Shown: piece by piece, positions 10,127 through 60,855 of the stretch
How the letters are laid out: each line of letters starts with the position of its first letter
Numbering within the stretch: the first letter of the stretch is position 1
Assembly (NCBI GenBank): GCA_947589645.1
Contig: CANQCG010000001.1
Coordinates: 19,179 to 83,178, forward strand
Length of the DNA stretch: 64,000 nt
Direction: 5' to 3'
Source of the DNA: an uncultured Clostridia bacterium
GTDB taxonomy: Bacteria > Bacillota > Clostridia > TANB77 > CAG-508
Position numbers and translations under genes: made by a program
The notes under the pieces: generated by a model
Seen by the model: the letters and a program-made list of their open reading frames with translations, nothing else
The model's database searches: none
What the model was told of the DNA's origin: nothing

Positions 10127-12250
10127 TTGAGTAAAAGAATAACTAAAGAGCAAATAAATTTAAGATTCAATATAACAACTCTTCTTGTATATATATTAGG
10201 GGCAATACTAATAGTTCAATTACTCAATTTGCAAATAGTACATGGAGAGGAATATAGAGAGCAGTCTAATACAAGGTTAACAAGAATTTCTGATATAGAA
10301 GGCTCAAGAGGAGATATTTTAGACAGAAGCGGTAACAAACTAGCCACGGTAAGAGTTGCATATAATATAGAATTGTACAAGACCAATATTGAAACGCAAG
10401 AATTAAATAATGCTATTTTAGAGTTAATAAACTTATTACAAAAAAATGAAGAAAAATATACCGATACATTTCCAATAAAAATAGATCCTTTTGAATTTAC
10501 TATTTCAGATAGTAGCTTATCTTCATGGAAAGAAAAATATGATTTTGACCAAGATATAACAGCAGAAGAAGCTTTTTATAAATTTAAAGACAAATATAAA
10601 ATATCAAGCGAAAGCATTGAAGACATACGCAAGATAATTTGTATAAGATATAGAATAACCACAGAAGGTTATAGTAGTACAAAATCAATACAAATAGCAT
10701 CAGACGTTAAACCGGAAACAGTAGCAGAAATAAGCGAAAAGAATAGCATTTTTGCAGGAATAAATATAGCAGAATCATCAATAAGAACTTACACATCAGG
10801 TAGCCTAGCCTCACATATTATAGGCTATATAGGTAATATTAATGAGGATGAATACAAAAAGCTAAAAGATACCTATGGCAGAAATGATATAATAGGAAGA
10901 ACTGGAGTAGAAAGCTTATTTGAAAATTACCTAAAAGGTAAAAGAGGCGAAAAGCAAATAGATATGGCAGTAGATGGAACTACCACAGCAGAATATGTAA
11001 CAAAAGAAGCAATATCAGGCTCAAACATTGTACTTACAATAGATTCTAATTTGCAACGTATTGCAGAGAACACTTTAAAAAATACTATTAACAAAATAGC
11101 ATCAGGAGGTTTTGCAGAAACAATTGATACAAAAGCAGGAAGTGTAGTTGTAATGAAGGTGGATACGGGTGAAATATTAGCAATGGCAAGTTATCCTGAC
11201 TTCGAGCCAGAAAAATTTGTTGGAGGAATTTCACCGAGTGATTGGAACTCATATAGAAACAATGAAAGCAAGCCATTAATAAATAGAGCAATACAATCAC
11301 AATATGCACCAGGTTCAATTTTTAAGATGGTAACTGCTACGGCAGGACTAGAAACAGGCACAATTAATATTTGGGACAGAATAAATGACACAGGAGTTTA
11401 TAGATATTATAACGATTACCAGCCAACATGTTGGCTTTATACAAGTTATGGTAGAGGCCATGGATACTTAAATGTATCAGGAGCTATAAAAAATTCTTGC
11501 AATTATTTCTTTTATGAATTAGGTAATAGACTAGGAATTGATACAATATCAAAATATGCAAAATATTTTGGGTTGGGTGAAAAAACTGGAATTGAACTTC
11601 CAAGCGAATCATCAGGTACACTTGCTTCACGTGAAACAAAACAAAAAATATATGCAAATGAAGAAAACAGTAAAAAACAATGGAATGCAGGAGAAACATT
11701 ATCTGCAGCCATTGGACAAAGTTACAATAGTTTTACCCCTTTACAAATAGCAAAATATATAGCAACACTTGTAAATTCAGGAAAAGAGGTACATCCAACT
11801 ATTATAAAAACTATTTTAAATGCAGATGGAACAGAAGAGTCAAAAGAGAATATAAGAAACTTTTCAAATGAAGCATTGGGAATAACAAATGATGAAAATG
11901 AGGAAACACTTGAGATAAAACCAGAAAATTTATCAGCCATATTAGAGGGAATGAGATCAGTAACAAGCGAAACTGGTGGAACTGCATACTCAGTTTTTAG
12001 GAACTTTAACATTGAAGTAGGTGGAAAAACTGGATCTGCTCAAGCGGGTGAAAATGTAAATGCATGGTTTACAGGGTTTGCACCATTTGATAATCCAGAG
12101 GTTGTAGTAGTAGCCATGGTAGAAAAAGGCTCACATGGTAGTTATACTGCAGAAATAGCAAGAGATATATTAGCAGAATACTTTGGTATTAACTATAGAA
12201 ATGTTGAAGAGACCACGAATGCAATTCCATATGTAGAACAAGAAAGATAG
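10127..12250 (+). CDS. mrdA: class B penicillin-binding protein (PBP2/SpoVD-type transpeptidase)
   Basis: It has an N-terminal TM segment and the SxxK (SIFK), SxN (SCN) and KTGS/KTGT (KTGSAQ) transpeptidase motifs. It follows mreD. The start is TTG, after AAGGTGA. Confidence 0.85.
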   Translation: MSKRITKEQINLRFNITTLLVYILGAILIVQLLNLQIVHGEEYREQSNTRLTRISDIEGSRGDILDRSGNKLATVRVAYNIELYKTNIETQELNNAILELINLLQKNEEKYTDTFPIKIDPFEFTISDSSLSSWKEKYDFDQDITAEEAFYKFKDKYKISSESIEDIRKIICIRYRITTEGYSSTKSIQIASDVKPETVAEISEKNSIFAGINIAESSIRTYTSGSLASHIIGYIGNINEDEYKKLKDTYGRNDIIGRTGVESLFENYLKGKRGEKQIDMAVDGTTTAEYVTKEAISGSNIVLTIDSNLQRIAENTLKNTINKIASGGFAETIDTKAGSVVVMKVDTGEILAMASYPDFEPEKFVGGISPSDWNSYRNNESKPLINRAIQSQYAPGSIFKMVTATAGLETGTINIWDRINDTGVYRYYNDYQPTCWLYTSYGRGHGYLNVSGAIKNSCNYFFYELGNRLGIDTISKYAKYFGLGEKTGIELPSESSGTLASRETKQKIYANEENSKKQWNAGETLSAAIGQSYNSFTPLQIAKYIATLVNSGKEVHPTIIKTILNADGTEESKENIRNFSNEALGITNDENEETLEIKPENLSAILEGMRSVTSETGGTAYSVFRNFNIEVGGKTGSAQAGENVNAWFTGFAPFDNPEVVVVAMVEKGSHGSYTAEIARDILAEYFGINYRNVEETTNAIPYVEQER

Positions 12251-12264
12251 TGGAGGAAACCAAA

Positions 12265-12882
12265 ATGAGAAATATTAGTATAAACCTAAAAAAGAAAGAA
12301 AATATCATAAAAATAGAAGAAAATGCAGAACAAAAAAATATAATTAATGAGTTGAATGGTAAGCTACCAAACTTAAAAAGATTGTATAAGGATGAAAAAA
12401 CGCCAATTAGGGTTACAGGAAAAGCATTAAAAAATAGTGAAATGGACGAAATAGAAAATCTTATAAAAAAATATTTAGATGTAGAAATTAGATTTGATTT
12501 ACCAAAAGAGTTAGGCTTATCAGGGATAGTAAAAACTTTTAATCAAACAATAAAAACTTCTGAAACTAGGTTCTATAAAGGTTCTATACGTTCAGGTAAA
12601 AAACTAGAAGCTGAGGGCAGCATAGTAGTTCTAGGAGATGTAAACTCAGGCGCAGAAATTGTGGCAACAGACAATATTGTAGTTTTAGGTTCCTTAAGAG
12701 GCTTAGCACATGCTGGGGCTAAAGGAAACAAAGAGGCAGTTGTATCAGCAGGTAGTTTTGATGCAGTTCAAATAAGGATTGCTAATATTATCAAAGAGAT
12801 AGATAGAGAAGAACAAGAAACACAAATAACACATGCTTATATACATGTGGTGGATGATAAAATAGTAATAGAAGAATGCTAA
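12265..12882 (+). CDS. minC: septum site-determining protein MinC
   Basis: The C-terminal beta-helix repeat is present (GSIRSGKKLEAEGSIVVLGDVNSGAEIVATDNIVVLGSLRGLAHAG). ATG 12265 is placed 7 nt after GTGGAGGA. The track start at 12250 is a GTG inside that RBS. Confidence 0.85.
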   Translation: MRNISINLKKKENIIKIEENAEQKNIINELNGKLPNLKRLYKDEKTPIRVTGKALKNSEMDEIENLIKKYLDVEIRFDLPKELGLSGIVKTFNQTIKTSETRFYKGSIRSGKKLEAEGSIVVLGDVNSGAEIVATDNIVVLGSLRGLAHAGAKGNKEAVVSAGSFDAVQIRIANIIKEIDREEQETQITHAYIHVVDDKIVIEEC

Positions 12883-12888: not shown

Positions 12889-13269
12889 TTAACTAAGTAA
12901 AAGCAAAATAAGTACAATAAAAAGGCCATCATCTTTTACACCTTCTGAATATAGGCAATATATTAGGCTGACTAGTAAAACATCATCCGAATAGATTTTT
13001 AAACCAAATAAATCAAACAAATAATCATAATTTTTGTTTGATTTATTTTTTTGTTCACATTTTCTAAACTCTGCTTGATTACTCAAAGTAGGACCATCTT
13101 TTTGAACATTATTAGAATTTACAGGCACAGGAATTGTAGAGATAGTTTTATTTGTATTAGCCGTAGTTGAATTTTGAAAATCATGATATTTTGGTGGCGT
13201 TCTATAAAAAGGAAAAGGAAAGTTAAAATATGGAGGCCTAGGCATTATGTTGATTCTCCTTTTTGTCAT
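12889..13269 (-). CDS. hypothetical protein (Pro/aromatic-rich N-terminus, hydrophobic C-terminus)
   Basis: ORF from the track. It is convergent with minC and has no recognisable family. The start could be 13245 (MPRPPY). Confidence 0.4.
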   Translation of the reverse strand: MTKRRINIMPRPPYFNFPFPFYRTPPKYHDFQNSTTANTNKTISTIPVPVNSNNVQKDGPTLSNQAEFRKCEQKNKSNKNYDYLFDLFGLKIYSDDVLLVSLIYCLYSEGVKDDGLFIVLILLLLS

Positions 13270-13678
13270 TTTTCATAACTTCTGCAAGTTTAGTAAGATT
13301 AAGTAAATTAGAATATTGATCCACCTTGCTTTTTCTACTATCTCTAAGATATGGCTTCAAAGAATTTAATAAATTACTACCAGGATTGTCTTTTTGATTC
13401 ATAGCATTTATTACAGAGCTCATCTTCATAATTGTTTCTGCATCTAAGTTTAAATTATTATTTGATGAACTATTTGAATTATTATTTCCTTTTAACATAG
13501 AAGAGACATTATTAATCATTTCTGGAGAAACTTGAGAAAGCATGTCATTTAAAGTTTTATTAGAATCTCCATTCTTATTATTTATATTGTTAATCAAGTC
13601 TTGCATTTCACTTGGAATATTTCCGCTATCCACCATTTTCTTTAAAGTATTAAAAGCATCAGTTAAATTATCTGACAT
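13238..13678 (-). CDS. hypothetical Asn/Ser-rich protein
   Basis: The ORF is 146 aa with a low-complexity NNNSNSSSNNN core and an AGGAGG RBS upstream. Confidence 0.45.
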   Translation of the reverse strand: MSDNLTDAFNTLKKMVDSGNIPSEMQDLINNINNKNGDSNKTLNDMLSQVSPEMINNVSSMLKGNNNSNSSSNNNLNLDAETIMKMSSVINAMNQKDNPGSNLLNSLKPYLRDSRKSKVDQYSNLLNLTKLAEVMKNDKKENQHNA

Positions 13679-13966: not shown

Positions 13967-13996
13967 TTATTATAAATAAATATGTTTGGAGGAAAA

Positions 13997-16900
13997 GTTA
14001 TGAAAAACAAAGTATTAAAAATAGCAATAGCAATTGTGCTAATAATGGTTATGACCATGTCAGATTTTATTTTTCTCGGCATGAGTGTAATAGCATATGC
14101 TGAGCAAAATGGCAGTGATGCAACAAATCATGCAAACGTTAAGTTTAGCACGTATTTTAAAGCGGAGGAAAGAAAAGTATCACAGAGCAAAATACAGATG
14201 GATAGCCAAGATATGAAGTTATACATGAACGTATCAGTAAAAAATGAAGGATACTTTGATGGAGTAATAACTTTAGAAAGCAGCAATTTCAAGCTAAAAC
14301 CAGAGAAATTAAGTGAATGCATAAGTAGCATAGAAGGAAACAAAATTATTCTAAACCGTGTAAGAGCTGGCGAAAGCATAGAAATTGAAGTAGGAATAGA
14401 GCCTATAAGAGAAGAAAACTATGGCGAAAATATGCTAGAAAAGATAAGTAAAATAAAACTAACTGGAAGCTATAAAGATAGCACAGAGAAAACTATAAAC
14501 ATAGACGCAACAAAAAATGTAGTTTTAGATTTACTTACACCAAGTAATTTAGACACAGCTTTATCATCACAAGTAATAACAAACAAGATATTTAAAATTG
14601 GTGAAGAAGAAAAAAGAATAGTACAAGTAGAAATAGATTCTACAGTATTACAAAATGCATATCCAATAAAAACTACGAACTTCGAAGTGACATTACCAAA
14701 AGAGGCAGAAGATATAGAAGTAATAGCGAAAGAAACTTCAGCAACAGATGGAAATTTAGATAGAAAATTAAACAATAAAAATTATAGCTATGATAAAGAA
14801 AGTAGCTTGTTAAAACTAGCAATAGAAAACGAAGTAAAAGATGGTAAGATAGTATGGAAACAAGAAGCAAAAGATAGCATAATAGTTACATTTGTTTTGC
14901 CAGTAGAAAAAGAAATAACAGAAGAAGAATATTTAGTAAAATCAAAAGTTGATTTTTATGGTGAGGAACAAACAAAAATAGAGAAAGAAGCAAAATATAA
15001 TTTACAACAAGAGGCAAATGGAATAATAAGAACAGAAGTACAAAACAAAGAAGAGATATACAAAGGAAAAATATATTCAAGAGAAGAAAGAGAATATTTA
15101 ACCCAAACAAATATAGAAATAAACTATTCAAACTTAGTTGAAGGAAACACAGTTGTAGAAAATGTAACATATAAAACAGAAACAGAAGAAAAACAAGCAA
15201 ATATAGAATATAAAACAACTACAATTAATAAGGCAGAAATACAAAAGGTATTAGGAGAAGAAGGAACATTAACATTAAAAAATGGAGCAGAAATAATAGC
15301 AGAAATTACAAATAAGACTGAAGCTAATGAAGAAGGAAACATAGTAATAAATTACAACGCAGGAGTAAAAGAATTAACAATAGAAATTACAAAAGCAGTA
15401 GAAACAGGAATAATAAGATTAAAACATACAAAAGTGATAAAAGAAGAAGCATATACAAAAGATGAAATAGTAGCAATAAAAGGGCTTGTAGAGAGAGCAA
15501 GCGTAAATTACAATTTAGGAGAACAAACATTAGGATATAATTGCGAAAAAGTAACAGAATTAAAAGAAACAAAAACATTAACAGAATTGTCAGTAGCACC
15601 AACTAACTTATCAACAGCAGTAGTAAATGAAGAAGTAAAATTTGCATTAACATTAAAAACAGATAATGAAAAATATGATTTATATAAAAATCCTACAATA
15701 ACAATAAAATTACCAGACTATGTAAAAAATATAGAACTAAAGAAAGCTAATGCCTTATACTTAGAAAGCATGCAAGTGTCAAGATTTTATTATTTAAACA
15801 ATACAAAAGAATTAAAATTAGAATTACAAGGCGAACAAACAAAGTATAATGGAACCAACAATAACATATACATTGAAATTTTATTAAATATAGAATTAGA
15901 GGAAACTATACCAAGTAAAAAAGATGCTATAACATTAACATATACAAACGACAAAGCAGTTACGTATGAAAACGAAGGAAAAGTGCTTGTACCAATAAGT
16001 ATAACAGGAATAAATGGGTTAGTTTCATTTAATAAAATAACAAACTATAATGTAAAAACAAATTCAGTAACAAGTAAAGAAGAACAAATAGCAGATGTAG
16101 AAATGAATAGTATGGCAACTGAAGCAAATGCAGAAATAGCACTTGTAAATAATACTGGAACAAAATTAACAGATGTAAAAGTTTTAGGCAACTTACCAGT
16201 AGATGGAGAGTTTAAATTAGGGAACTATACATTTGAAAACACAATAGGAGCAACATTAAAAAATGGAATAAATGTGCAAAATGAGGCAGCAACTGTGTAT
16301 TATACAGCAAATGAAAATGCAACAAAAGACTTAGGTAATGCAGAAAACGGATGGACAACAAATTTAAATGAGGTAGCAAATCCAGTATTATACATGATAG
16401 TAATACCAAATATGGAAGTAGAAACAAACTTTATAGCAAACTATACAATGAAGGTACCAGCAAACTTACAATATAATAAAGATATGAAAACAACATATAC
16501 AGTAGATTATATAGTAAATGATTCAACTACAACAGTAAATGCAGTACCAGTAGGACTAGAAACAGGAAAAGTAGAAGTACAATTATTAGCAAGTGTAGGT
16601 GGAAACGTAATAGAAAATAACAGCATGGTAAGAGCAGGAGAAGTAATAAAATACACAATAAATGTAACAAATACAGGTAGTAACGATGTACAAAATGTGA
16701 AAGTATCAGCATCAGTACCAGATGGAACAGTATATATAGAGCCACTAGAAAATTCTGTGTATGTAGAACCACTAAACTTATATTATGAAGAAAATGCAGA
16801 AAAGGAAACAGTAGAAGCAACTTTCGAAAATATTAAGGTTAATGAAACAAAAACAGTAGAGTATGAAGTAAGAGTAAAATCTGATGTAACTGAAGAAACA

Positions 16901-18988
16901 GCCTTAAACCAAGCAACAGTTACATATAATGACAATGTGGAAGTAAAATCAAATGAGGTTACTAACTCTTTAAAAGAAGGAAAAGTAAGAATAACTGTAA
17001 AAAGAGGAACAGATACATCATTAGATCTTTTACAATCACAAAATATAGCATATTTTATAATAGTAGAAAATATATCAAACGAAGAAGTTAAAAACTTAGA
17101 AGTAAAAATAAACATACCAGAAGAACTTAAGTTATCTGAAGTTATAGATACAGATATAGAAAGCATATTACCTCTTTCAAATATAATACAAATTGATTCT
17201 ATAAAACCTGACGGAAATAAAGTATATAAAATATTTACGTGCGTAAATAAATCTGACGAAGCACAAAAAGCTACTAATATTACAGCAACAGTAGAACAAA
17301 AAGATGAGAGTATTGTTTATAGATCTAACTCATTTGATGAAATAGTTTATGGCTTTGATATTGATATTACAATGACAGGAACACGAGAAGGAGAATATTT
17401 AAAACCAGAAGATATAATAGAATTTGAAATAACAGTTGTAAATAATTCACTTATTAATGCAATAAACTATGAAGTAACAACTACAATACCAGAGCAATTA
17501 AGTATTAATAAAATAGAAGTTGACGGAGTAGAAGAAGAAAACATAATAGGAAATAATTTTTCAAAAGTATTAGGAGATTTACTTTCTGGCGAAACTATTA
17601 AAATAAAAATAGAAGCAATGGTAAATTATGATCCAACTAGAACAAAAATCGAAACTATTTCAACATCTGCAAATTTAATAAATTCAGGTGTTGTAGAAAA
17701 ACAAACAAATGCAATAGTACATTATTTAGAGGCAATTAAGAAACCTGGAGAGGAAGTGGTAGACCCAGATGACCCAGACAATCCACCAGTAGATCCGCCA
17801 ATAGATCCACCAGAAGACCCAGACAACCCACCAGTAGATCCAGATGATCCAGATAATCCAGATAAGCCACCAGTAGACCCAGATGATCCGGACAACCCAG
17901 ACAACCCAGATAACCCAGATAACCCTCCAACAGTTAATAAATACAGCATATCCGGTAAAGCATGGATAGATAGAAATCAAGATGGTGAACTAAATGAAGA
18001 TGATGCAGTTTTAAAAGATATAAAAGTAAGATTATTAGATTTAGCAACAAATCAATTCGTAAGAAATGATGAGGGAACAAAAGATTTAATTGTAGAAACT
18101 GATGATAATGGAGCATATATATTTGTAAATATAAAAGAAGGAAAATACATTGTAGTATTTGAATATGATACAAGTTTATATAAGCCAACAGATTATCAAA
18201 AACAAGGAGTACAAGAAGCTAATAATTCAAATGTAATTACAAAAACATTAGATATTAATGGCGAAGAACAAGAATATGCAACAACAAATGAAATCGAATT
18301 AAATCAAAACATAGCGAACATAAATATGGGCTTAGCATTTACAAAGAGATTTGATATACAAATAGATAAATATATAACAAAATTAATAGTACAAACTTCA
18401 CAAGGAACAACAACATATGATTATAAAGATAAAGATTTCGCAAGAGTAGAGATAAATGCAAAAAGAATAATAGGATCAAGTATATTAGTACAATATACAA
18501 TAAGGGCAACAAACACAGGAGATGTAGATGCATACATCAATTCACTAGTGGATTATATGCCAAATGACCTAAAATTTAACTCAGAATTAAATAAAGATTG
18601 GTATGAATTAAATGGCAATTTATATACAAGCAGTTTAATGAATACACCAATAGAACCAGGAAAGAGCAAAGAAGTTAATTTAATATTAACAAAGACAAAA
18701 ACAGATGGAAATGCGGAATTAATAAATAATATGGCAGAAATACAAGAAGCATATAACATATATGGAATAATAGATACAAACTCACAAACTGAAAATCAAA
18801 ATAAAGACGAAAACGATTTAGGATCAGCAGATTTATTAATAAGTATACAAACAGGTAGAGCATTTAGCTATATAACTTTAGTAATACTTATGATAGCAGT
18901 AATTGGAATTGCAACTTACTTAATAAATAAAAAATTATTGCATATAGACTCTAATGGAAAGGAGGAAGACATAAATGCAAAAAAATAA
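13997..18988 (+). CDS. giant surface protein A1. It has a signal peptide, DUF11 repeats, a Pro/Asp-rich linker, an SdrD-B-like domain, a further DUF11 repeat and a C-terminal SIQTG motif followed by a TM segment and a basic tail.
   Basis: ATG 13997 follows GGAGGA; the track start 13982 lacks an RBS. The DUF11 signature is VRAGEVIKYTINVTNTGSNDVQNVKVSASVPDGTVY. The SdrD-B-like block runs SGKAWIDRNQDGELNEDD...DDNGAYIFVNIKEGKYIVVFEYD. The C-terminus is ...LLISIQTGRAFSYITLVILMIAVIGIATYLINKK. Confidence 0.85.
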   Translation, partial: VMKNKVLKIAIAIVLIMVMTMSDFIFLGMSVIAYAEQNGSDATNHANVKFSTYFKAEERKVSQSKIQMDSQDMKLYMNVSVKNEGYFDGVITLESSNFKLKPEKLSECISSIEGNKIILNRVRAGESIEIEVGIEPIREENYGENMLEKISKIKLTGSYKDSTEKTINIDATKNVVLDLLTPSNLDTALSSQVITNKIFKIGEEEKRIVQVEIDSTVLQNAYPIKTTNFEVTLPKEAEDIEVIAKETSATDGNLDRKLNNKNYSYDKESSLLKLAIENEVKDGKIVWKQEAKDSIIVTFVLPVEKEITEEEYLVKSKVDFYGEEQTKIEKEAKYNLQQEANGIIRTEVQNKEEIYKGKIYSREEREYLTQTNIEINYSNLVEGNTVVENVTYKTETEEKQANIEYKTTTINKAEIQKVLGEEGTLTLKNGAEIIAEITNKTEANEEGNIVINYNAGVKELTIEITKAVETGIIRLKHTKVIKEEAYTKDEIVAIKGLVERASVNYNLGEQTLGYNCEKVTELKETKTLTELSVAPTNLSTAVVNEEVKFALTLKTDNEKYDLYKNPTITIKLPDYVKNIELKKANALYLESMQVSRFYYLNNTKELKLELQGEQTKYNGTNNNIYIEILLNIELEETIPSKKDAITLTYTNDKAVTYENEGKVLVPISITGINGLVSFNKITNYNVKTNSVTSKEEQIADVEMNSMATEANAEIALVNNTGTKLTDVKVLGNLPVDGEFKLGNYTFENTIGATLKNGINVQNEAATVYYTANENATKDLGNAENGWTTNLNEVANPVLYMIVIPNMEVETNFIANYTMKVPANLQYNKDMKTTYTVDYIVNDSTTTVNAVPVGLETGKVEVQLLASVGGNVIENNSMVRAGEVIKYTINVTNTGSNDVQNVKVSASVPDGTVYIEPLENSVYVEPLNLYYEENAEKETVEATFENIKVNETKTVEYEVRVKSDVTEETALNQATVTYNDNVEVKSNEVTNSLKEGKVRITVKRGTDTSLDLLQSQNIAYFIIVENISNEEVKNLEVKINIPEELKLSEVIDTDIESILPLSNIIQIDSIKPDGNKVYKIFTCVNKSDEAQKATNITATVEQKDESIVYRSNSFDEIVYGFDIDITMTGTREGEYLKPEDIIEFEITVVNNSLINAINYEVTTTIPEQLSINKIEVDGVEEENIIGNNFSKVLGDLLSGETIKIKIEAMVNYDPTRTKIETISTSANLINSGVVEKQTNAIVHYLEAIKKPGEEVVDPDDPDNPPVDPPIDPPEDPDNPPVDPDDPDNPDKPPVDPDDPDNPDNPDNPDNPPTVNKYSISGKAWIDRNQDGELNEDDAVLKDIKVRLLDLATNQFVRNDEGTKDLIVETDDNGAYIFVNIKEGKYIVVFEYDTSLYKPTDYQKQGVQEANNSNVITKTLDINGEEQEYATTNEIELNQNIANINMGLAFTKRFDIQIDKYITKLIVQTSQGTTTYDYKDKDFARVEINAKRIIGSSILVQYTIRATNTGDVDAYINSLVDYMPNDLKFNSELNKDWYELNGNLYTSSLMNTPIEPGKSKEVNLILTKTKTDGNAELINNMAEIQEAYNIYGIIDTNSQTENQNKDENDLGSADLLISIQTGRAFSYITLVILMIAVIGIATYLINKKLLHIDSNGKEEDINAKK
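17752..17930 (+). repeat. tandem short codon repeats encoding the (PDDPDNPPVD)n Pro/Asp linker of A1
   Basis: Reiterated gac cca gat gac cca gac aat cca cca gta units are seen directly. Confidence 0.7.
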
Positions 18989-21900
18989 AACACGAAGGAA
19001 ACTATTAGCAGTATTAGCTGTAACTCTAATTGTTATGGGATTACTAATTGGTAAAGTGTCTGCGGATTATGCGTTACCATGGGATGATGGCAACGGGATC
19101 TATTATAATCAAGCGGACTTTGGAGTAGATTATACTAAAACTGTAGATGGTCATGGACGTATATATATTTGGCAAGCTGGAAAAAACCTCCAAGATACAT
19201 GGCAACAATGGTCAATAGGACGACATGCTGCTATGACAGCCTGGACAGATAACTACATGGAGGATAATAGTTTAAAAAATAGCGCTGGCGTTTCATTGAG
19301 AAGGTATGCAAATGCAACAAAAGATGCAGATGGCAATTATGATGGTTATTATCGAACTAAGAGTGGTAGGTATGTATATGATTATTATGGATCATTTTTC
19401 CAACAACTGTTTAATAAAGATATATACTGTGCACAACAAGGACAGACATTAACTAGAAATGGTGTATGGGAATTAAAGTATAAGATTAAGATTGGAATAG
19501 ATGGCACTACTAAAGAACCTAAAATTACTGAAGCTATTAAAAAAGGTAATGGAGAAATAGTTGATCCAAAGTATACTGATGCAAATTTACCATACAACAC
19601 AACTGCAAATGCAACAAGAGCAAATAAAATTCTTATAGAATTAGTAAAAGAAGGAAAGGCACACGAAACAACCAGAAAAAGAACAATAGCTTCTGTTATA
19701 CATCAAGATATTTATCAACATGCAATATGGCAATATTTTGATCAGTGGAGAGATATTGTTTTTGGAACAGGTGTAATACCTGAGATAACAAAACCAGGAA
19801 CATATAAACATGAGGACTCTGGAACACAGTCAGGCTATGAACACGATGACAATTATGATGCCGGAGAAGAAATATTAGATGAAATAATTCGTCGAGTAGA
19901 TAATGGTATGACAAATTATGGACAACCTTATATTAATAGAGAAGATACTCAGGAAGATAGGTTAAAAACAACTGTTGATGGAACATATACAATTTTAGGA
20001 CCATTTAATTATACTTTTAATGGTAACATTTCATCAATTGATGTGTCTTATAATCAAAATGCTGACTACGAAACAAATAAAACATTTGGAACATTTGTAG
20101 GAAATACCTTTAAAAGCAAAAATATGTCAGACATAACCAGTGGAAATGACTTTTATGTTAGAATACCTACTGCAAACTTATCAGCACACAAAAAAATTTA
20201 TCTTAAAATAAAAGTAACGAATAATAATGTACCAAATGAAACAGCTATATACATATTTACAAATGATACCCAACAAACAATGGCATATATTGATCAAGAC
20301 TATATATCTGGTTCAGCAGAAAGTACAGAAGAATATATTTATGGAATAGAGCAATCAGTATCAATAATAAAGAAAAATGAAGCTGATTTACCTGTAGCAA
20401 ATATTATATTTGATATATATGATGGTAGCACTTATGTTGGAAGCTTGACTACAAGTAAAGAAGGAACAACAAAAACAATAGATCTAGAACCAGACAAAAA
20501 ATATACATTAAAAGAGAGATCTAATAGTGAATATGGATATAAAAACGCAAATATTGCATCTGCAACCATAACAAATGGAAAAATAACAGTATTGTCAGAT
20601 GGAACTGCTGAATTTACTATAACTAATAATAGTGTAATTACCATAAAAAATGAACCACAATTAGGAAATATTACAATCAAAAAGGTAGGAGAATCTGGAA
20701 AAGGATTAGCAAATGCAGAGTTTATAATTTGGAATGGATATGGTTACTTACAATTATTTACAAGTAGCGGAAGCGTTAGTAGTATAAATAAAAATGTAAC
20801 TATAAGCAAATCAAATACAGCAAGTGCATCAGAGTATAAGGCTGATTTCTCTTCTACTGAAAGAAATAAAGCAACGAGATTTGTAACAAATTCATCAGGA
20901 GAAATAGTAATTAACAATTTGGAAATATATTCAGGCAAAGGAACAACATATCCTTATACAATAGAAGAAATAGGCAACAATAATTACGGATATAGAGGAT
21001 TAGTATTGACAAATGCAACAGTTAGTGGAGCAACAAAAGATTCTGTAGATACAGACAAAAGACAAGTAAAAATATCAAATATAGGTAATAACAGTGTAAT
21101 TACGATAGAAAACTCAGAAGAATTAGTAAACATACATTTGAAAAAACAAGGAGATAATAAGAAAGATTTAAGTGATGTAGAATTTGTAGTAAAAAGAGAA
21201 GGAAATAATTCTTCAAACACAGGTTATTTAAGACTTAACAGTTCTACAGGACCTATAACAACTCAAAATTCAGGCCTAGATGTAAGAAAATATACAATAG
21301 ATTATGTAACTGATATAAACCAAGCAACCAGATTTAAGACAAATGAATCAGGAAATATAGTTATAAATGGCTTAGAAAAATACGAGTCTAAAGGAATAAA
21401 ATATACTTACAAAATCAAAGAAATAGCTAATAGTAATTACGGATATAACGGAATGATTTTAGAAAGTACAACAGATACAAAAGAAGCAAAAATAACAGAT
21501 GATATTAAAAATAGAGAAATTACTATTAAAAATTCAGAAGATGATGTAGAGTTAACAATAAACAACAAATCAGCTTTAGGAAATCTAGAACTTATAAAAG
21601 TAGATGAAGATTCACCATCTATAGTATTAGAAGGAGTTCAATTTAAAGTAACAAAAGATGGAAAATATCTACAACTTAAAAATAATAAGGACGAAGTACA
21701 ATCTACAGTAAAAGGAACAGTTACTATAAATAAAAATAATCAAGCAAATAATACAGAATATAAAGTAGAATATATAAATGATGCTAGCAAAGCAACAATA
21801 TTTGAAACAGGAGCAGACGGAAAAATAACCATAAACAATCTTGAAGTATATTCAGGAGTAAATTCAGCACAAAACCCAATACAATGCACATATGTATTTG

Positions 21901-24900
21901 AAGAGGTAGCTAACCCTATTTATGGTTATGTAATTGGACCAAATATAAGTGTAACAATAAAGCCAGATGTATTAAATAAAATAACTGCAACAAACAAGCA
22001 AAAATATATCAAATTAACAGGTTATGCATGGCTAGAGAAGCAAAATATAGACAAAGATAAAAAGTATAATTTGAGATATATAGAAGGTACAGGAAGCGTT
22101 GATAAAAAACTAAAAGACCTTTATAAATATGAAGGCGGAAAATTAGTAATAAATCCAGAAGCTGAGATACCAGTACAAATAAAATTAATACAGAAGAGTA
22201 CAGGAGCAGAAATAAAATCAAGCCCGGATGAGTTTGATTCAGATGGAAAATATACATTTACGAATGTAGAAACAGATAATCTTGCAGATTACGAAATACA
22301 ATTTGTATATAATGGCTTCTATTATACAACAATAAATGCAATAATATTTGAAAATGATGGTTCTATAGCCGAAAACACTTCAAAAGTTGCAGAAGATGCT
22401 CGTGATAGAGCGGACTTAAATAATAAATTTGGAGAGATAAATAAAGAGGGAATGACCTCAGTAGATGGAAAAAATAATTATGCAGTTAGCTATGAAAAAG
22501 TAGAAAATCAATCATATTTGAAAGGTTTTGACTTTAGCACAAATGTAAGAGCTACTACTACATTGGCTGGATATGATATGAATACAATTTATAGAGATTT
22601 AAAACAAAAAGGTCTAACAGATAGCATTAATTATATTAATTTAGGAATACTTGAAAAAGACCAACCAAGCATATCAATAAGCAGTGATATTAATAATGTA
22701 TTGGTAAACTTTGAAGGAAAAAGTTACAATTATGATTACGAACTAAGAAGAGAATATAGAGAAAGACATAGTGAAGAAGAAGTAGGCGTAAAATTCGAAG
22801 AAAAGAAAGTAACAAGATATACAAGAACAATGTATGCATCAGATATAGAAGCAATAGCAAAAGATGAGCATAAACCAATAGAAGTATTAATAACATATAA
22901 GATAACAATATCAAATCTTTCTTCAACATTAGAAGGAAAGACATCTACATTACGAGTAAATCCAATACAATTAAAGAATTACTTTGATAACAGGTATACA
23001 GTAGTGGCAGTAAGCCACAAGTTCGACAATAATCAAGCTAGTAAAACAGAAGAAAATTATGCAACTACAGAGCTAGAAAATACTACAGCAACAGTAGATG
23101 GTAGTTCAGATACTGTAGATTTTAAAACTATAGCAATAGACTATAATACATGGCTTAACCCAGGTGAAGTAGATAGCTTGTATATAACATTTGATGTGGA
23201 AAGACAAGCAATAGTTGACTTGTTAGATGAAAAATCTACATACCATAATGCAACAGAAATAGCAAAATATAAAACTGCATATGGTGATACAACTGGAAAA
23301 CAAGACAATAACTATATAATAACAGATCATACAGAAGCAGGAAGTATATATGCAGGTATAAATGCAGGATGTGCACCAGATAATATAGAATTGAAATTAA
23401 AAGATCATGAAAGTGGAGACGGAACAAAAATTTTCGAAACATCTGGATATGAACTTGATACAACATCATCACCATCATTAGTATTAGAAGCAAGTGATAC
23501 AGCAAGACAACTTGCAGGATCAATATGGGAAGATACAGATGATAATACATCAGATAACGAAAGACTAGGAAACGGAAAAATAGATACAAATGAAAAACCA
23601 ATAGCAGATGTTGTTGTGACATTACATAAGGTAAATGAAGATGGAACAATTAGCAAAGAACCAGCAATGTATTCTGATGGAATAACCAAGGCAGAAACAC
23701 GTACAGATCAACAAGGAAGATATGTATTTGGTTATGTAAAAGAAGAAGCTGGAAACAGAGAATATATAGGAGTATTGCCAGGCAATTATGTAGTTAAGTA
23801 TACATATAATGGTGAATCATATATTCATGATGCAGCAACAGGAAATAATACTTATATAGACGCTAATTACTATAAATCAACAATAATAACATCAACTGTT
23901 ATAGAAAATGCAATTGAAAACGAAGATATAACATATGAAGGAGTTACATACCCAACACGAAGATGGTATTTAATTAAAGAAGCAGATAGATATTCTGATG
24001 CAATAGATAATATGGATTTAAGAAAAGACTTAAATAACAACCCTGTAACAAATAAAACATATAATGAAAAATCAACGATAATAACATCAATGGATGCATA
24101 TACACCAGTTATGGATATAGGTATAGAATATACTAAAGATGATTCAGCAGAAGCAGTACAATTAGACAACGCAGGAGAAGTTGAAATAATAACATTTGTA
24201 GCTAATTGGGAAAATGTAGACTTTGGTATAATTAAGAGACCAATAATAGATATAACAATAGAAAAAGAAATAACAGGAATGCAAATAGTAGCACAAAATG
24301 GAGGAAATATTGTACCAAAAGGAAATCCTCAGGATGGCGGAATGAGATACATCAAAGCAGTAGGCAAACTAGTTTCTGGAGAAATAGATTTAAAATTATT
24401 GCAAGGCGCAAAATTAAATGAAGAATATACAGTTACTGTTGACAATAACTGCGAAGATGACTACTTAACAGATGGATATTATATTTACGGAAGAGATAAA
24501 AATACTCCAAGAGATTCAAAAGCAATCTTAGTAGTAGATTATCTTGATAGTACAATGTTATTAGATACAGAACAAGATAATAGTGCATGGGAAGAGAAAG
24601 ATGTACAATACCTAGTAGATAATGGACTTATAGAAGAAGGTGGAGATGTACATAGAGATTTACAATCTGGTGATTACAGAATATATGTAACACAAGAATT
24701 TGAAACTAAGGATGAAATAAAATTATATACAACAAGATATTTGGCAACAACAACAAATGATATTGTTGAAGAGAACAGAGTAGAAATAGTAGAACTAAAT
24801 GGAGGAAGAACAATAGAACGTTCAGTGCCAGGAAACTACATACCAAAAGAATCTAATCCTGATGATCCAGGAGAACCAGATGATTCTAGTGTTAAATTAA

Positions 24901-25019
24901 TAATCACACCACCAACTGGAAGCACAGTAAATAATGTACCATATCTAATAGCAGCAACAGTAACCTTTACGATACTAGTATTAGGAATAGTAGTAATCAA
25001 AAAGAGAATTGTTAAATAA
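18975..25019 (+). CDS. giant surface adhesin B1. It has a signal peptide, a thioester-domain-like N-terminal region, multiple SpaA/CnaB-type prealbumin-fold domains and a C-terminal PPTG sortase-type sorting signal.
   Basis: The start overlaps the A1 stop by 14 nt and follows AAAGGAGGA. Cys152 sits in IYCAQQGQ and Gln248 in YQHAIWQY, matching the TQxA(I/V)W pattern. Repeated LANAEFIIW / LSDVEFVVK / LEGVQFKVTKDG blocks are seen. The C-terminus is ITPPTGS followed by a hydrophobic stretch and KKRIVK. Confidence 0.85.
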   Translation: MQKNKTRRKLLAVLAVTLIVMGLLIGKVSADYALPWDDGNGIYYNQADFGVDYTKTVDGHGRIYIWQAGKNLQDTWQQWSIGRHAAMTAWTDNYMEDNSLKNSAGVSLRRYANATKDADGNYDGYYRTKSGRYVYDYYGSFFQQLFNKDIYCAQQGQTLTRNGVWELKYKIKIGIDGTTKEPKITEAIKKGNGEIVDPKYTDANLPYNTTANATRANKILIELVKEGKAHETTRKRTIASVIHQDIYQHAIWQYFDQWRDIVFGTGVIPEITKPGTYKHEDSGTQSGYEHDDNYDAGEEILDEIIRRVDNGMTNYGQPYINREDTQEDRLKTTVDGTYTILGPFNYTFNGNISSIDVSYNQNADYETNKTFGTFVGNTFKSKNMSDITSGNDFYVRIPTANLSAHKKIYLKIKVTNNNVPNETAIYIFTNDTQQTMAYIDQDYISGSAESTEEYIYGIEQSVSIIKKNEADLPVANIIFDIYDGSTYVGSLTTSKEGTTKTIDLEPDKKYTLKERSNSEYGYKNANIASATITNGKITVLSDGTAEFTITNNSVITIKNEPQLGNITIKKVGESGKGLANAEFIIWNGYGYLQLFTSSGSVSSINKNVTISKSNTASASEYKADFSSTERNKATRFVTNSSGEIVINNLEIYSGKGTTYPYTIEEIGNNNYGYRGLVLTNATVSGATKDSVDTDKRQVKISNIGNNSVITIENSEELVNIHLKKQGDNKKDLSDVEFVVKREGNNSSNTGYLRLNSSTGPITTQNSGLDVRKYTIDYVTDINQATRFKTNESGNIVINGLEKYESKGIKYTYKIKEIANSNYGYNGMILESTTDTKEAKITDDIKNREITIKNSEDDVELTINNKSALGNLELIKVDEDSPSIVLEGVQFKVTKDGKYLQLKNNKDEVQSTVKGTVTINKNNQANNTEYKVEYINDASKATIFETGADGKITINNLEVYSGVNSAQNPIQCTYVFEEVANPIYGYVIGPNISVTIKPDVLNKITATNKQKYIKLTGYAWLEKQNIDKDKKYNLRYIEGTGSVDKKLKDLYKYEGGKLVINPEAEIPVQIKLIQKSTGAEIKSSPDEFDSDGKYTFTNVETDNLADYEIQFVYNGFYYTTINAIIFENDGSIAENTSKVAEDARDRADLNNKFGEINKEGMTSVDGKNNYAVSYEKVENQSYLKGFDFSTNVRATTTLAGYDMNTIYRDLKQKGLTDSINYINLGILEKDQPSISISSDINNVLVNFEGKSYNYDYELRREYRERHSEEEVGVKFEEKKVTRYTRTMYASDIEAIAKDEHKPIEVLITYKITISNLSSTLEGKTSTLRVNPIQLKNYFDNRYTVVAVSHKFDNNQASKTEENYATTELENTTATVDGSSDTVDFKTIAIDYNTWLNPGEVDSLYITFDVERQAIVDLLDEKSTYHNATEIAKYKTAYGDTTGKQDNNYIITDHTEAGSIYAGINAGCAPDNIELKLKDHESGDGTKIFETSGYELDTTSSPSLVLEASDTARQLAGSIWEDTDDNTSDNERLGNGKIDTNEKPIADVVVTLHKVNEDGTISKEPAMYSDGITKAETRTDQQGRYVFGYVKEEAGNREYIGVLPGNYVVKYTYNGESYIHDAATGNNTYIDANYYKSTIITSTVIENAIENEDITYEGVTYPTRRWYLIKEADRYSDAIDNMDLRKDLNNNPVTNKTYNEKSTIITSMDAYTPVMDIGIEYTKDDSAEAVQLDNAGEVEIITFVANWENVDFGIIKRPIIDITIEKEITGMQIVAQNGGNIVPKGNPQDGGMRYIKAVGKLVSGEIDLKLLQGAKLNEEYTVTVDNNCEDDYLTDGYYIYGRDKNTPRDSKAILVVDYLDSTMLLDTEQDNSAWEEKDVQYLVDNGLIEEGGDVHRDLQSGDYRIYVTQEFETKDEIKLYTTRYLATTTNDIVEENRVEIVELNGGRTIERSVPGNYIPKESNPDDPGEPDDSSVKLIITPPTGSTVNNVPYLIAATVTFTILVLGIVVIKKRIVK

Positions 25020-38467: not shown

Positions 38468-39997
38468 ATGGAACAAAATAAGCCTAGAGGAAGAAGATAT
38501 TCAGAAGATTCTAAACTAAATTATGCAAAAATATTAGCAGTAGTTGTTGCAATAGCAGTAGTTATAATGTTTGTGCTAGCAATTAAAATGTTACTTTCAT
38601 ATGACATAACAAAACTAAGAGTAAAAAAAGAATATTTTCCAGTATATACAGAAGAAAAATGGGGTGTAATAGATTCATCAGGTAATACAGTAATACCACC
38701 ATCATATGCTGAGATGATAGTTATACCAGACACTACCAAAGATGTATTTTTATGTATGTATGATGTAAATGTTGCAGATGGAACATATAAAACAAAAGCA
38801 ATAAATTCAAAAAACAAGGAAATTTTTACAGAATATGAGCAAATAGAAGTATTAGAAAATTATGATAAAAACCAAAATGTTTGGTATGAAGAAAATGTAC
38901 TTAAAGTAAAAAAAGATGGTAAATATGGTTTAGCTAATTTAAAAGGCAAGTTAATTTTAAATTGTGAATATGACGATATATATACTCTTAAAGGAATAAA
39001 AAATAGCTTGATTGTTCAAAAAAATGATAAAATAGGCTTAGTAGACGATAATGGCAGAGTAGTTATTGAAGCTATTTATACAGATATTCAGCCACTAGGA
39101 ACAGAAGCCTTAGATGGTTACATTGTAAAAAATGAAGCTGGAAAATATGGGGTAATAGGTGCAAATAAAGATGTTAAACTAGACATGCAATACGAAAAGG
39201 TTGAACAAATAGTAGGTAACAACTTATATGTAATTACAGAGGATGGTAAGCAAAAACTAGTAAATTCTAAAGGTACACCAATACTTACAGAAGGTTTTGA
39301 TACTATAGAGCAAATACTAAAAGATTCTGAAGGAGTAATATTTAAAAAAGATGGCTTATATGGAACAATGAACACTGATGGAACAGTTACAATTCCAAAT
39401 ACTTATCAAGAATTAAAGCAGATAGAAAATGGCTATATAATAGCTAAAAATGAGGGTAGATATGGAATTATAGACACACAAAACACAGTAAATTTATACT
39501 TTAATTACACTACTATTAGTTATAATAAAGCACTAGATGTTTATGTTGCAGATGATGCAGATTTTAGAACATCAGTTATAGATAAAAAATTTGAAGTAAA
39601 ACTAATTGGTATTTTATCAGAATTAAATGAAAATTTAAAATATATTAAAATGAGAATAAATGATGATTATAAATACTATAATTTAAACTTTGAAGAAAAA
39701 CCAAATACAGAGCTTCTAAAAGGTAATACATTATTCTTAAGTAAAAAGAATGGTAAGTATGGCTATGTAAATGCAAAAGGAGAAGTTGTAGTAGATTATA
39801 CATATGATGATGGAACAGAGCAAAATAAATTTGGATATGTAGCTGTACAAAAGAGCGGAAGATGGGGCTCAATTGATTCAAAAGGACAAGTAGTAGTTAG
39901 ACCGACATATACATTAGATAACAACATAATTATAAATTTCATTGGTAAATGGCATTTAGGTGAAGACGTAAATATGAATTATTATTGTGAGAAATAA
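38468..39997 (+). CDS. membrane-anchored WG-repeat protein
   Basis: An N-terminal TM segment is followed by about eight repeats of GKYG(L/V)xNxxGxxVIxxxYD (WG-containing beta-repeat pattern, for example GRWGSIDSKGQVVV). GGAGGA RBS. Confidence 0.6.
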   Translation: MEQNKPRGRRYSEDSKLNYAKILAVVVAIAVVIMFVLAIKMLLSYDITKLRVKKEYFPVYTEEKWGVIDSSGNTVIPPSYAEMIVIPDTTKDVFLCMYDVNVADGTYKTKAINSKNKEIFTEYEQIEVLENYDKNQNVWYEENVLKVKKDGKYGLANLKGKLILNCEYDDIYTLKGIKNSLIVQKNDKIGLVDDNGRVVIEAIYTDIQPLGTEALDGYIVKNEAGKYGVIGANKDVKLDMQYEKVEQIVGNNLYVITEDGKQKLVNSKGTPILTEGFDTIEQILKDSEGVIFKKDGLYGTMNTDGTVTIPNTYQELKQIENGYIIAKNEGRYGIIDTQNTVNLYFNYTTISYNKALDVYVADDADFRTSVIDKKFEVKLIGILSELNENLKYIKMRINDDYKYYNLNFEEKPNTELLKGNTLFLSKKNGKYGYVNAKGEVVVDYTYDDGTEQNKFGYVAVQKSGRWGSIDSKGQVVVRPTYTLDNNIIINFIGKWHLGEDVNMNYYCEK

Positions 39998-40009
39998 AGG
40001 TGGTAATAA

Positions 40010-58246: not shown

Positions 58247-58300
58247 CAATTTCAGTAAAATGTAAGAGGTGAAAGTACATGAATCAAATTCTTGATACAA

Positions 58301-58993: not shown

Positions 58994-59006
58994 AATAGGA
59001 GGAAAT

Positions 59007-60785: not shown

Positions 60786-60814
60786 TTGACTTTTTGGCAC
60801 TTTGAGTATATTAT
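60786..60814 (+). promoter_or_regulatory. sigma-A-type promoter for minD-minE-rodA (TTGACT - 17 nt - TATTAT)
   Basis: The -35 is at 60786..60791 and the -10 at 60809..60814, 40 nt upstream of the minD ATG. Confidence 0.5.
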
Positions 60815-60855
60815 TATATAGAAAAAGTGTTGAAAAAATCCTAAGGAGGGAAATT

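Follow-up and report, generated by a model that had tools for sequence, protein, structure and literature searches.

A conserved x-T-G module at the C-termini of giant CLIPPER-domain surface proteins in uncultured gut Clostridia

Prediction, engineering and targeting of the surface proteins of Gram-positive bacteria depend mainly on sortase signals, and present annotation models for these signals demand Leu-Pro or x-Pro. The LAxTG signals of class E sortases in Actinobacteria set a precedent, in that their position 2 holds an aliphatic residue other than proline. A distance of 17-45 residues between the motif and the C-terminus has been used as a criterion for sortase substrates (PMC4155245). 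In C. difficile, the surface protein CbpA (CD3145) carries a proline-less NVQTG, after which come a hydrophobic segment and a basic tail (VGQNVQTGDQSNIMLDLALMFISLFFLIKNLTNKYLRRK; PMC4155245), and this motif was left uncleaved by SrtB, the only sortase of that species, in two independent in vitro assays (PMC4155245, PMC4371152). The CLIPPER domain (DUF11, PF01345; PDB 9IFR), an isopeptide domain, has been described as a stalk repeat (PMC12617251).

We analyzed a 64-kb stretch of DNA (64,000 nucleotides, hereafter the window) from an uncultured Clostridia bacterium, in which rodA and uvrD lie near the two ends. An earlier sequence-only reading had drawn attention to five of its large genes, designated A1, B1, A2, B2 and C, whose products end in motifs resembling sortase signals. 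The features on which the analysis rests are as follows, with positions counted from the first nucleotide of the window.

13982-18988, + strand: gene A1, 1668 aa, secreted surface protein (ORF list, translation, Pfam DUF11/CLIPPER and SdrD_B)
18458-18865, + strand: A1 terminal CLIPPER/DUF11-type domain, aa 1493-1628 (terminal-module HMM, E = 6e-53, profile positions 2-138)
18842-18856, + strand: A1 motif S-I-Q-T-G, aa 1621-1625
18872-18925, + strand: A1 hydrophobic segment ITLVILMIAVIGIATYLI (translation)
18926-18985, + strand: A1 basic tail NKKLLHIDSNGKEEDINAKK (translation)
18975-25019, + strand: gene B1, 2014 aa (ORF list, translation), its start overlapping the end of A1 by 14 nt
24906-24920, + strand: B1 motif T-P-P-T-G, in the same register as SIQTG (the HMM aligns 'viisiktG' to 'KLIITPPTG')
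25292-30217, + strand: gene A2, 1641 aa, paralogue of A1
30092-30106, + strand: A2 motif S-I-Q-T-G (translation)
30122-30175, then 30176-30214, + strand: A2 helix and tail (translation)
30236-35623, + strand: gene B2, 1795 aa, paralogue of B1
35510-35524, + strand: B2 motif T-P-P-T-G (HMM E = 4.5e-11, reaching profile position 138)
52208-58108, + strand: gene C, 1966 aa, several CLIPPER repeats
57611-58018, + strand: C terminal CLIPPER domain, aa 1802-1937 (HMM E = 9e-55)
58001-58015, + strand: C motif S-V-N-Q-G, with Gln for Thr relative to [ST]-[IV]-x-T-G
58019-58105, + strand: C short linker, membrane helix (AlphaFold2, query residues 204-230) and conserved tail ILIKRFVL

The true start of A1 is probably the ATG at 14000, from which the translation opens with MKNKVLK, as in A2.

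The C-terminal module of A, B and C

Translation placed SIQTG in A1 and A2, SVNQG in C and PPTG in B1 (24909-24920) and B2 (35513-35524) exactly where the sequence-only reading had located them. The tripartite layout it described also held, in that all five motifs are followed by about 18-20 hydrophobic residues and then by a tail rich in Lys and Arg. In a six-frame translation of the window, S[IV][QN][TQ]G occurred exactly three times, in each case in the tail of A1, A2 or C. The window motifs end 30-43 residues from the stop codon, and their distance, hydrophobic segment and positively charged C-terminal tail all agree with what is expected of a sortase substrate. An additional SIRTG at nt 50143 was discarded as a chance match, as it falls in a 42-codon ORF without a hydrophobic segment. 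By inspection, the N-termini of all five proteins have the basic n-region, hydrophobic core and AxA-like site of a signal peptide. With signal peptides and with CLIPPER, SdrD_B, SpaA and thioester domains, the proteins have the make-up of typical sortase cargo.

The domain that carries the motif was assigned to PF01345 well above the gathering threshold of 24.6 (52.7, 71.7 and 111 bits for A1, A2 and C, respectively), and PF01345 was also precomputed on C-terminal fragments of close A homologues. Protein C contains five DUF11 stretches (E = 5e-32), the best-scoring of which is the terminal copy (aa 1812-1906), and a weak match to a thioester domain (TED; E = 0.005). The Lys of 'FDLxLxK' and the Asn before 'AEI' ('NxAEI') were invariant or nearly so in 82 sequences. 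In the A1 translation, the last beta-strand of the domain (ADLLI) leads directly into SIQTG, and TG was found at this position in 13 of 13 close homologues.

An AlphaFold2 model of the C tail, built from 82 sequences with a pLDDT of 90, is a beta-sandwich with IDDATVLLSVN as its last strand. The first three motif residues (S-V-N) lie within this strand, and three residues later the helix begins; on this model, a sortase would need to peel the strand off a domain that is probably locked by an isopeptide bond. For the A1 tail, the predicted helix starts at query residue 188, in a model of such low confidence as to be unusable (13 sequences, pLDDT 52). Foldseek against the PDB returned generic Ig-like matches only (integrin alpha, RhoGDI, and 9IFR at rank 14), which are uninformative on processing.

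The modeled geometry is in line with an explanation in which these proteins would have a plain type I membrane anchor. The helix would be kept, [ST]-[IV]-x would be a longer final strand, T-G would be a conserved hinge, and IKKxVL would act in the cytoplasm, for example in pairing A with B, with no cleavage taking place. The integrin alpha ectodomains among the top structural matches are likewise Ig-like domains adjoining a membrane helix. We regard this explanation, the main rival to the sortase reading given below, as possible but less likely than not, in light of the conservation data that follow.

The B motif had been read as the (S/P)PxTG type, and the presence of two signals in one gene pair had been taken to suggest two processing enzymes. 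A profile of the A/C terminal module nevertheless matched the B tails (E = 6.7e-11 for B1 and 4.5e-11 for B2), a homology recovered only by a local profile with the HMMER filters off; when the final 250 residues of B1 were used to look for homologues, nothing appeared at E <= 1e-3. SIKTG aligns with TPPTG residue for residue. The earlier register was off by one residue, and across 54 B orthologues the motif is an LPXTG-like pentapeptide, [T/I/M/L]-P-[S/P/A/N]-T-G. Position 1 is T in 36, I in 10, L in 3 and M in 3 of these proteins, position 2 is Pro in 51, Thr is retained in 50, and Gly is present in all 54, including the four in which Thr is replaced by Phe or Pro. Relative to LPXTG, TPPTG keeps Pro, Thr and Gly with Thr in place of Leu, SIQTG is without Leu and Pro, and SVNQG is also without Thr. 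Neither group conforms to the (S/P)PxTG of clostridial SrtB, as position 1 in the B proteins is never Ser or Pro (n = 54) and position 2 in A-type tails is I, V or L.

Proline at position 2 does occur in a few A/C-type tails (7/264), and at one related locus (L064) the terminal motifs of three neighboring paralogues are APKTG, SVKTG and AVKTG. Because the A/C profile matches the B tails in register, and because P and V interchange in paralogues, the claim of two enzymes is unsupported. Judging from these alignments, A1, A2, B1, B2 and C share one homologous C-terminal anchoring module, and the A and B motifs are forms of a single module that is polymorphic (P/I/V) at position 2. The order of its parts is a terminal CLIPPER (DUF11) Ig-like domain, [S/T/G/A]-[I/V/L/P]-x-T-G, 1-9 variable residues, a hydrophobic helix of about 20 residues, and a basic tail, [I/N]KKxV[L/I].

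Conservation of the motif across the homologue family

Among 272 homologous tails from public data, 264 had T-G at the aligned position and all 272 had the G; A orthologues collected from genomes had TG in 60 of 60 cases. Thr was missing only from C, the five nearest relatives of C, and two other sequences. The unified pattern S-[IV]-[QN]-[TQ]-G proposed from the window must accordingly be revised: the family consensus is [STGA]-[IVL]-x-T-G, N-Q-G reflects a rare loss of Thr limited to C and its five nearest relatives, and by sequence comparison SVNQG is a degenerate form that stands apart in one small clade.

The same domain also occurs internally, where its copies run directly on to the next domain ('FDLAL.K'). 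With both counts anchored on the EDD motif, TG followed 258 of 267 terminal copies and none of 179 internal copies. The absence of TG after internal copies indicates that the domain fold does not need it. These sequence comparisons support strong selection on the motif, specific to the domain copy preceding the membrane helix.

A1 and A2 are paralogues with 71% identity in the tail region, and their shared SIQTG alone is not independent information; the SVNQG of C shares with it only S, a hydrophobic residue and G. Taken by themselves, the window tails could be ascribed to chance resemblance or to the recent A1/A2 duplication. This explanation is refuted on three counts: the motif persists in at least 2866 clusters of proteins at 50% identity, 97% of the tails examined have TG, and the motif follows terminal domain copies only. 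We assign the explanation a negligible probability.

The residues right after G are the most variable of the region (3.1 bits vs 1.0 for the domain), as expected beside a cleavage site, and they also vary in number, with 1-9 residues between motif and helix. The tail IKK[YF]VL (entropy 0.70 bits) exceeds the domain in conservation, and Y209 and G223 within the helix are strongly conserved. Across 262 homologues, G was followed by 27-43 residues (median 31), which falls within the 17-45 residue limits for sortase substrates (PMC4155245), and the charged tail had a median of 6 residues. A relative of 70% G+C (L065) carries SIVRTG after a Thr/Pro-rich linker, not on a beta-strand, followed by the helix and RRR.

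These observations bear on the membrane-anchor explanation in both directions. The strong conservation of IKK[YF]VL, Y209 and G223 is consistent with a retained helix and tail, as is a Gly that is invariant while Thr can be exchanged for Gln, Phe or Pro. However, a hinge leaves unexplained the 97% conservation of Thr across sequences down to about 30% identity, the full x-P-x-T-G kept by 51 of 54 B partners, and the motif that follows a disordered Thr/Pro linker in L065. Residues after G that are hypervariable in kind and number are contrary to a fixed structural hinge, and the tail is always short, like that of sorting signals.

Locus context and candidate processing routes

The sequence-only reading had reported that the window holds no sortase gene, and our searches agree. 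Among ORFs of at least 100 residues there was no credible TLxTC-type signature, and Pfam Sortase matched no plausible ORF of at least 150 aa, the three unscanned ORFs of this size being on the strand opposite to known genes that they overlap. Two loose matches to [TS][LIVM]x[TS]C were rejected, as they fall in short minus-strand ORFs overlapping A1 and the minD/minE genes. At 64 related loci, which together span about 1.2 Mb, the 10 kb around each homologue likewise revealed no sortase.

The genome scan for related loci used a 13-sequence alignment, a 30-sequence alignment being too diverse. Orthologues of A, of about 1600 aa, occupy a conserved locus in about 50 species, with the A-B pair conserved in almost all related loci. 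This pair of giant envelope proteins occupies a fixed core-genome position, minC / A-B / spoIIE, in about 50 species of uncultured gut Clostridia. No peptidase is among the genes that keep their position beside A-B in related loci, and the peptidase-family genes of the window (M23, M16 and S11) are ordinary cell-wall or processing types that are not tied to A, B or C.

In agreement with the earlier view that the motif lies outside known signals, no curated sorting-signal model was matched above threshold. The matches, which ran from x-T-G to the end of the protein, fell just below it, at 13.2-14.1 bits against a cut-off of 15.9 for TIGR01167 and 14-16.4 against 20 for PF00746; the A1, B1 and C tails had no match at all to either model. 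The QVPTGV-class model TIGR03065 gave 12.9 bits for one homologue tail, against a cut-off of 21.35, and no match to the window tails. Seven tails gave no match at E up to 10 to PEP-CTERM, GlyGly-CTERM, Firmicu-CTERM and similar NCBIfam models, in a scan whose HMMER filters can discard very weak matches.

The explanation we favor, at about even confidence, is that the module is a sortase-type sorting signal in a variant form that lacks proline, and that an enzyme encoded at an unlinked locus processes it. The protein would be exported by Sec and stay in the membrane through its helix and basic tail. A transpeptidase of the sortase family, encoded at another place in the genome, would then cut after Thr, and the last CLIPPER domain would be joined to peptidoglycan, making the string of Ig-like domains a wall-spanning stalk. 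What the sequences establish is the module with its conservation, its confinement to terminal copies of the domain, the register common to the A and B motifs, and a sortase-like geometry; we infer the cleavage, the enzyme and the attachment. In favor of this reading are the conserved T-G that is confined to terminal domain copies, the hypervariable residues that follow it, the tail length, the near-threshold matches to the LPXTG models, the in-register x-P-x-T-G of the B tails, the occasional Pro at position 2 in A/C-type tails, the SIVRTG of L065 and the cargo-like make-up of the proteins. Given its loss of Thr (N-Q-G), C of this organism may be poorly cleaved or retained in the membrane.

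Several observations count against the sortase reading. There is no linked sortase at any locus examined, and SrtB left the NVQTG of CbpA uncut in vitro (PMC4155245, PMC4371152), both of which also favor a plain membrane anchor. Leu and Pro are absent at positions 1-2, the curated cut-offs were failed, and the first three motif residues lie in the last strand of the pLDDT 90 model. Thr is replaceable (by Gln in the clade of C, or by Phe or Pro in B) while Gly is fixed, and in a disposable signal one would not usually expect a tail, IKK[YF]VL, whose conservation surpasses that of the domain.

A second alternative is a dedicated non-classical system: motif, helix and tail would be read by a rhomboid-type protease, another intramembrane or juxtamembrane protease, or a new transpeptidase, comparable to PEP-CTERM/exosortase or GlyGly-CTERM/rhombosortase. 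Consistent with this alternative, the whole tripartite region including the tail is conserved as a unit, like known dedicated sorting domains, the module is common to three otherwise different protein families of one genome, it exceeds the threshold of no curated model, and the analogous NVQTG is uncut by C. difficile SrtB (PMC4155245). Rhomboid proteases recognize sites with a hydrophobic P4 and a small P1, a rule that I-x-T-G would also fit. Neither the window nor the conserved neighborhood of A-B supplied a candidate enzyme, however, and the T-G dipeptide with its P-x-T-G variant points specifically to sortase chemistry. We consider a dedicated system of this kind quite improbable.

A broader proposal, which we consider unlikely, is that the module is the recognition domain of a new C-terminal sorting system, one that would act in uncultured gut Clostridia on surface proteins ending in CLIPPER, of which there are thousands. 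Its enzyme would be either a new class of sortase that accepts a beta-branched aliphatic residue for Pro or a non-sortase enzyme. The choice of P or I/V at position 2 would set the fates of A and B, for example wall linkage for B, with A either staying in the membrane or being processed by a second enzyme, and the same system would also explain the anchoring of CbpA (NVQTG).

This conserved tail drops just under annotation models that demand Leu-Pro or x-Pro. If the tails are processed, they make up a large class of wall-anchored proteins, so far unannotated, in the gut microbiota of humans and animals, together with a sortase specificity or a new enzyme. If they are not, T-G tails of LPXTG-like form can serve as stable membrane anchors, which would call for caution in predicting sortase substrates.

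Comparison with known anchoring systems

The motif-bearing domain is a CLIPPER domain by Pfam, and 9IFR is among its structural matches; it differs from CLIPPER as published (PMC12617251), where no terminal copy fused to an x-T-G membrane-anchor tail is described. A literature search for SIKTG, SISTG, SVKTG, SIQTG, SVSTG and GVKTG motifs returned nothing relevant, and a published study of TANB77 deals with a type IV-like pilus that has no connection with these tails.

The LPXTG signal (TIGR01167, PF00746) has the same tripartite layout, in which T-G stands 27-43 residues before the end of the protein and a hydrophobic helix of about 20 residues is followed by a K/R tail. It shares with the present proteins a cargo of large adhesin-type proteins with Ig-like repeats and signal peptides, and the B proteins carry x-P-x-T-G. 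In contrast, A and C have [S/T/G/A]-[I/V/L] where LPXTG has Leu-Pro, scores lie under both cut-offs, the motif abuts the last beta-strand without a linker, the basic tail has a conserved sequence, and searches of the neighborhood revealed no sortase.

In the B proteins, TPPTG, TPSTG and TPATG resemble the SPKTG and SPSTG of the C. difficile SrtB (S/P)PxTG class in that Pro at position 2 is preceded by a hydroxyl residue at position 1, whereas position 1 across the 54 B proteins is Thr, Ile or Met and never Ser or Pro. The LAxTG of class E sortases offers a possible analogy for a non-proline position 2, one that the IVRTG following a Thr/Pro-rich linker in L065 may echo; it belongs to another phylum, however, has Ala where Ile or Val is found here, and no class E sortase was identified in this study.

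The closest described case is the NVQTG of CbpA, which has x-[V/I]-Q-T-G without proline in a clostridial surface adhesin. The sequence-only reading had suggested that the SIQTG class might be an undescribed specificity; this published analogue (PMC4155245, PMC4371152) leaves that suggestion only partly correct. NVQTG is isolated in one protein and is not preceded by an EDDxDxAxVxV CLIPPER end, whereas here the motif is family-wide; if processed, the A/B/C tails would also provide a comparative context for the attachment of CbpA in C. difficile.

C-terminal tails and their motif

The window (28% G+C) carries five very large genes, all on the plus strand, which encode giant surface proteins: the paralogues A1 and A2, the paralogues B1 and B2, and C. 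The tails read from the ORF list and translation agree in sequence and coordinates with those of the sequence-only reading.

Surface-protein genes and their C-terminal tails, from the ORF list and translation
13982-18988, plus strand, A1; tail ...DLLISIQTGRAFSY-ITLVILMIAVIGIATYLI-NKK..., SIQTG at nt 18842-18856
18975-25019, plus strand, B1; tail ...ITPPTG..., PPTG at nt 24909-24920
25292-30217, plus strand, A2; tail ...VLVSIQTG..., motif at nt 30092-30106
30236-35623, plus strand, B2; tail ...ITPPTG..., PPTG at nt 35513-35524
52208-58108, plus strand, C; tail ...VLLSVNQGGGIQS...KRFVL, motif at nt 58001-58015

A six-frame translation of the window contains just three matches to S[IV][QN][TQ]G, 30-43 residues ahead of the stop codons of A1, A2 and C. 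Used as query in a word-indexed search, the A1 tail returned 11 relatives at identities of at most 75%; the C tail returned 245, and a full HMMER profile search returned 2866 clusters at 50% identity (1334 at E <= 1e-30), most of them proteins of ~1600-1700 aa with the module at their extreme end. Among the proteins retrieved whose C-terminus includes a hydrophobic segment, the aligned position holds G in 272/272 and T-G in 264/272, within a family consensus of phi-phi-phi-[S 142, T 48, G 30, A 29]-[I 131, V 98, L 16, P 7]-x-T-G. Eight tails depart from T-G: C and its five closest relatives (all SVNQG), plus SVQPG and TVALG. Because tails lacking T-G are so few and SVNQG belongs to the C clade, the single pattern S-[IV]-[QN]-[TQ]-G, into which A1, A2 and C had been merged, combines the consensus of the family and an uncommon degenerate variant.

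Further upstream in A1, a proline/aspartate-rich repeat (PDDPDNPPVDPPIDPPEDPDNPPVDPDDPDNPDKPPVDP...; aa ~1275-1320, window ~17800-17950) immediately precedes the SdrD_B domain and might serve as a spacer, either flexible or spanning the wall.

The terminal CLIPPER domain

Pfam and NCBIfam assign DUF11 (PF01345, now named CLIPPER; TIGR01451) to A1, A2 and C, and the ~135 residues preceding the motif form one such domain. A profile of the terminal module (last CLIPPER domain, pentapeptide, membrane helix and basic tail) matches A1 aa 1493-1628 (E = 6e-53), A2 aa 1473-1608 and C aa 1802-1937 (E = 9e-55). Where a protein has several repeats, the internal domain copies close with ...EDDxDxAxVxV and pass straight to the following domain ('FDLAL.K'); TG comes after 0/179 internal versus 258/267 terminal copies, which indicates that the pentapeptide is an extension found only where a membrane helix comes next.

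Tails of A at related loci read [S/G]-[I/V/L]-[R/K/Q]-T-G in 60/60. The PPTG ascribed to B1 and B2 is present, but in too short a register: position-by-position counts over 54 B tails, [T 36, I 10, L 3, M 3]-P(51/54)-[S/P/A/N]-T(50/54)-G(54/54), make the motif an x-P-x-T-G pentapeptide, one residue longer (TPSTG, TPPTG, TPATG, IPSTG; rarely LPPFG, IPPPG). With HMMER filters off, the A/C profile matches B1 (E = 6.7e-11) and B2 (E = 4.5e-11), pairing 'viisiktG' with 'KLIITPPTG', and at the related locus L064 (29% G+C) three adjacent thioester/CLIPPER paralogues close with IIVAPKTG, FIVSVKTG and IIIAVKTG. The register of the B tails and these endings show that A, B and C carry one homologous anchoring module, polymorphic (P/I/V) at position 2. 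Two anchoring signals served by two enzymes had been proposed; given a shared module, the sequence data need no second system.

Genomic setting

A genome scan found 55 related loci, every one from uncultured gut Clostridia MAGs (sources include Clostridium sp. CAG:343, CAG:389 and 28_17). The gene order in nearly all is mreBCD - pbp2 - minC - (small reverse ORF) - A - B - (more A or A-B copies) - spoIIE - WG-repeat gene, which makes A-B a conserved pair with a fixed place in the core genome. Copy number is one to three of A or A-B; the window shows a tandem duplication of the pair (13982-35623). The 14-nt overlap between the end of A1 and the start of B1 and the 18-nt gap from A2 to the start of B2 suggest translational coupling.

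Upstream of A1, two divergent minus-strand ORFs (126 and 146 aa; 12889-13678) lack a Pfam match; the 146-aa ORF keeps its position in almost every related locus (identity 33-65%). At 38468-41239, a 509-aa WG-repeat protein is followed by a 409-aa protein without a Pfam match; at many related loci both keep synteny with spoIIE. The radC-mreBCD-pbp2-minC cell-shape/division cluster lies ~48 kb apart from minD-minE-rodA, and A1-B1-A2-B2, spoIIE, C and further genes fill the stretch between:

12250-12882, minC
60802-63348, minD, minE and rodA

Since ~50 related species share the left-hand junction (minC, small reverse ORF, A-B, spoIIE), this separation is a clade-wide arrangement, not a recent insertion.

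C has a weak thioester-domain match (aa 187-283; PF08341, E = 0.005), and proteins with the same kind of tail at L064 (10001-17184) have clear ones and, like C, precede minD-like and rodA genes by a few genes; C may thus be a thioester-type covalent adhesin. Directly 3' of C (58292-59939) are a 233-aa protein with weak Ig-like matches and a GGDEF-domain response regulator. As cyclic di-GMP controls surface display of sortase substrates in C. difficile (PMC5569036), a regulatory link is possible by analogy. Many C-family entries listed in databases as 'proteins' are C-terminal fragments (loci L061 and L059/L060; many C-tail matches of 200-400 aa). At L061 (4485-10846), an 1808-aa ORF ends at 9911 and a 281-aa gene is the end of a longer reading frame displaced by one base. 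Assembly errors, pseudogenes or programmed frameshifting are possible causes.

Possible processing of the tail

As first reported, the window holds no sortase gene: its ORFs of at least 100 residues contain no credible TLxTC-type signature, and no plausible ORF of at least 150 aa gave a sortase match in Pfam scans. The loose pattern [TS][LIVM]x[TS]C matched only twice, in short minus-strand ORFs overlapping A1 and the minD/minE genes. Neither the signature nor an S. aureus SrtA match occurred in 1.07 Mb (the window and 58 related loci), and annotated flanks of six further loci include no sortase. As housekeeping sortase genes often lie apart from those of their substrates, what this absence shows is a lack of linkage only.

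The distance from G to the C-terminus (27-43 residues, median 31; charged tail, median 6) falls inside the 17-45 residue criterion applied to sortase substrates (PMC4155245). In the C family, variability is 3.1 bits after G (hypervariable), 1.9 in the helix (moderate) and 0.70 in the final IKK[YF]VL, lower than the 1.03 of the domain. From x-T-G on, LPXTG anchor models align with the tails of A2, B2 and homologues, below threshold (TIGR01167, 13.2-14.1 bits versus 15.9; PF00746, 14.0-16.4 versus 20); TIGR03065 (QVPTGV class) gave one match (12.9 versus 21.35), and other C-terminal sorting-domain models did not match the tails.

The motif is real, under strong selection and bound to the anchor, and the description that suits it best is an LPXTG-like signal lacking proline, fused to the terminal CLIPPER domain. 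The sequence-only reading is thus supported in part; its merged pattern, PPTG register and two systems are not supported. Chance resemblance is excluded. We favour, at roughly even probability, processing by an unlinked sortase-family enzyme, because Thr-Gly is conserved only ahead of the helix, the tail geometry is canonical, and proline forms occur, in register, in partner B and some paralogues. A lesser but substantial possibility, and the main rival, is a membrane anchor that stays uncleaved and has a conserved hinge. The C tail as modelled by AlphaFold2 (82 homologues, pLDDT 90) speaks for it: a beta-sandwich whose final strand, IDDATVLLSVN, leads through Q-G-G into a helix reaching the C-terminus. 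So do the conserved cytoplasmic tail and the fact that Gly is invariant whereas Thr is not. Action of a non-sortase sorting enzyme on the tail is a third, less likely possibility.

We found no literature on the family's commonest pentapeptides. The nearest described case, and a precedent for the uncleaved anchor, is NVQTG of C. difficile CbpA, a proposed sortase motif that two independent in vitro assays found uncleaved by SrtB, the sole C. difficile sortase; the conclusion drawn there is that another mechanism may attach CbpA (PMC4155245, PMC4371152, PMC5569036). At locus L065 (10001-17518; GCA_964268175.1, 70% G+C), a 2505-aa multi-CLIPPER protein of a high-G+C organism ends in a Thr/Pro-rich linker, SIVRTG, a helix and RRR. 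Its V-x-T-G, separate from the beta-strand, resembles the LAxTG signals of Actinobacteria.
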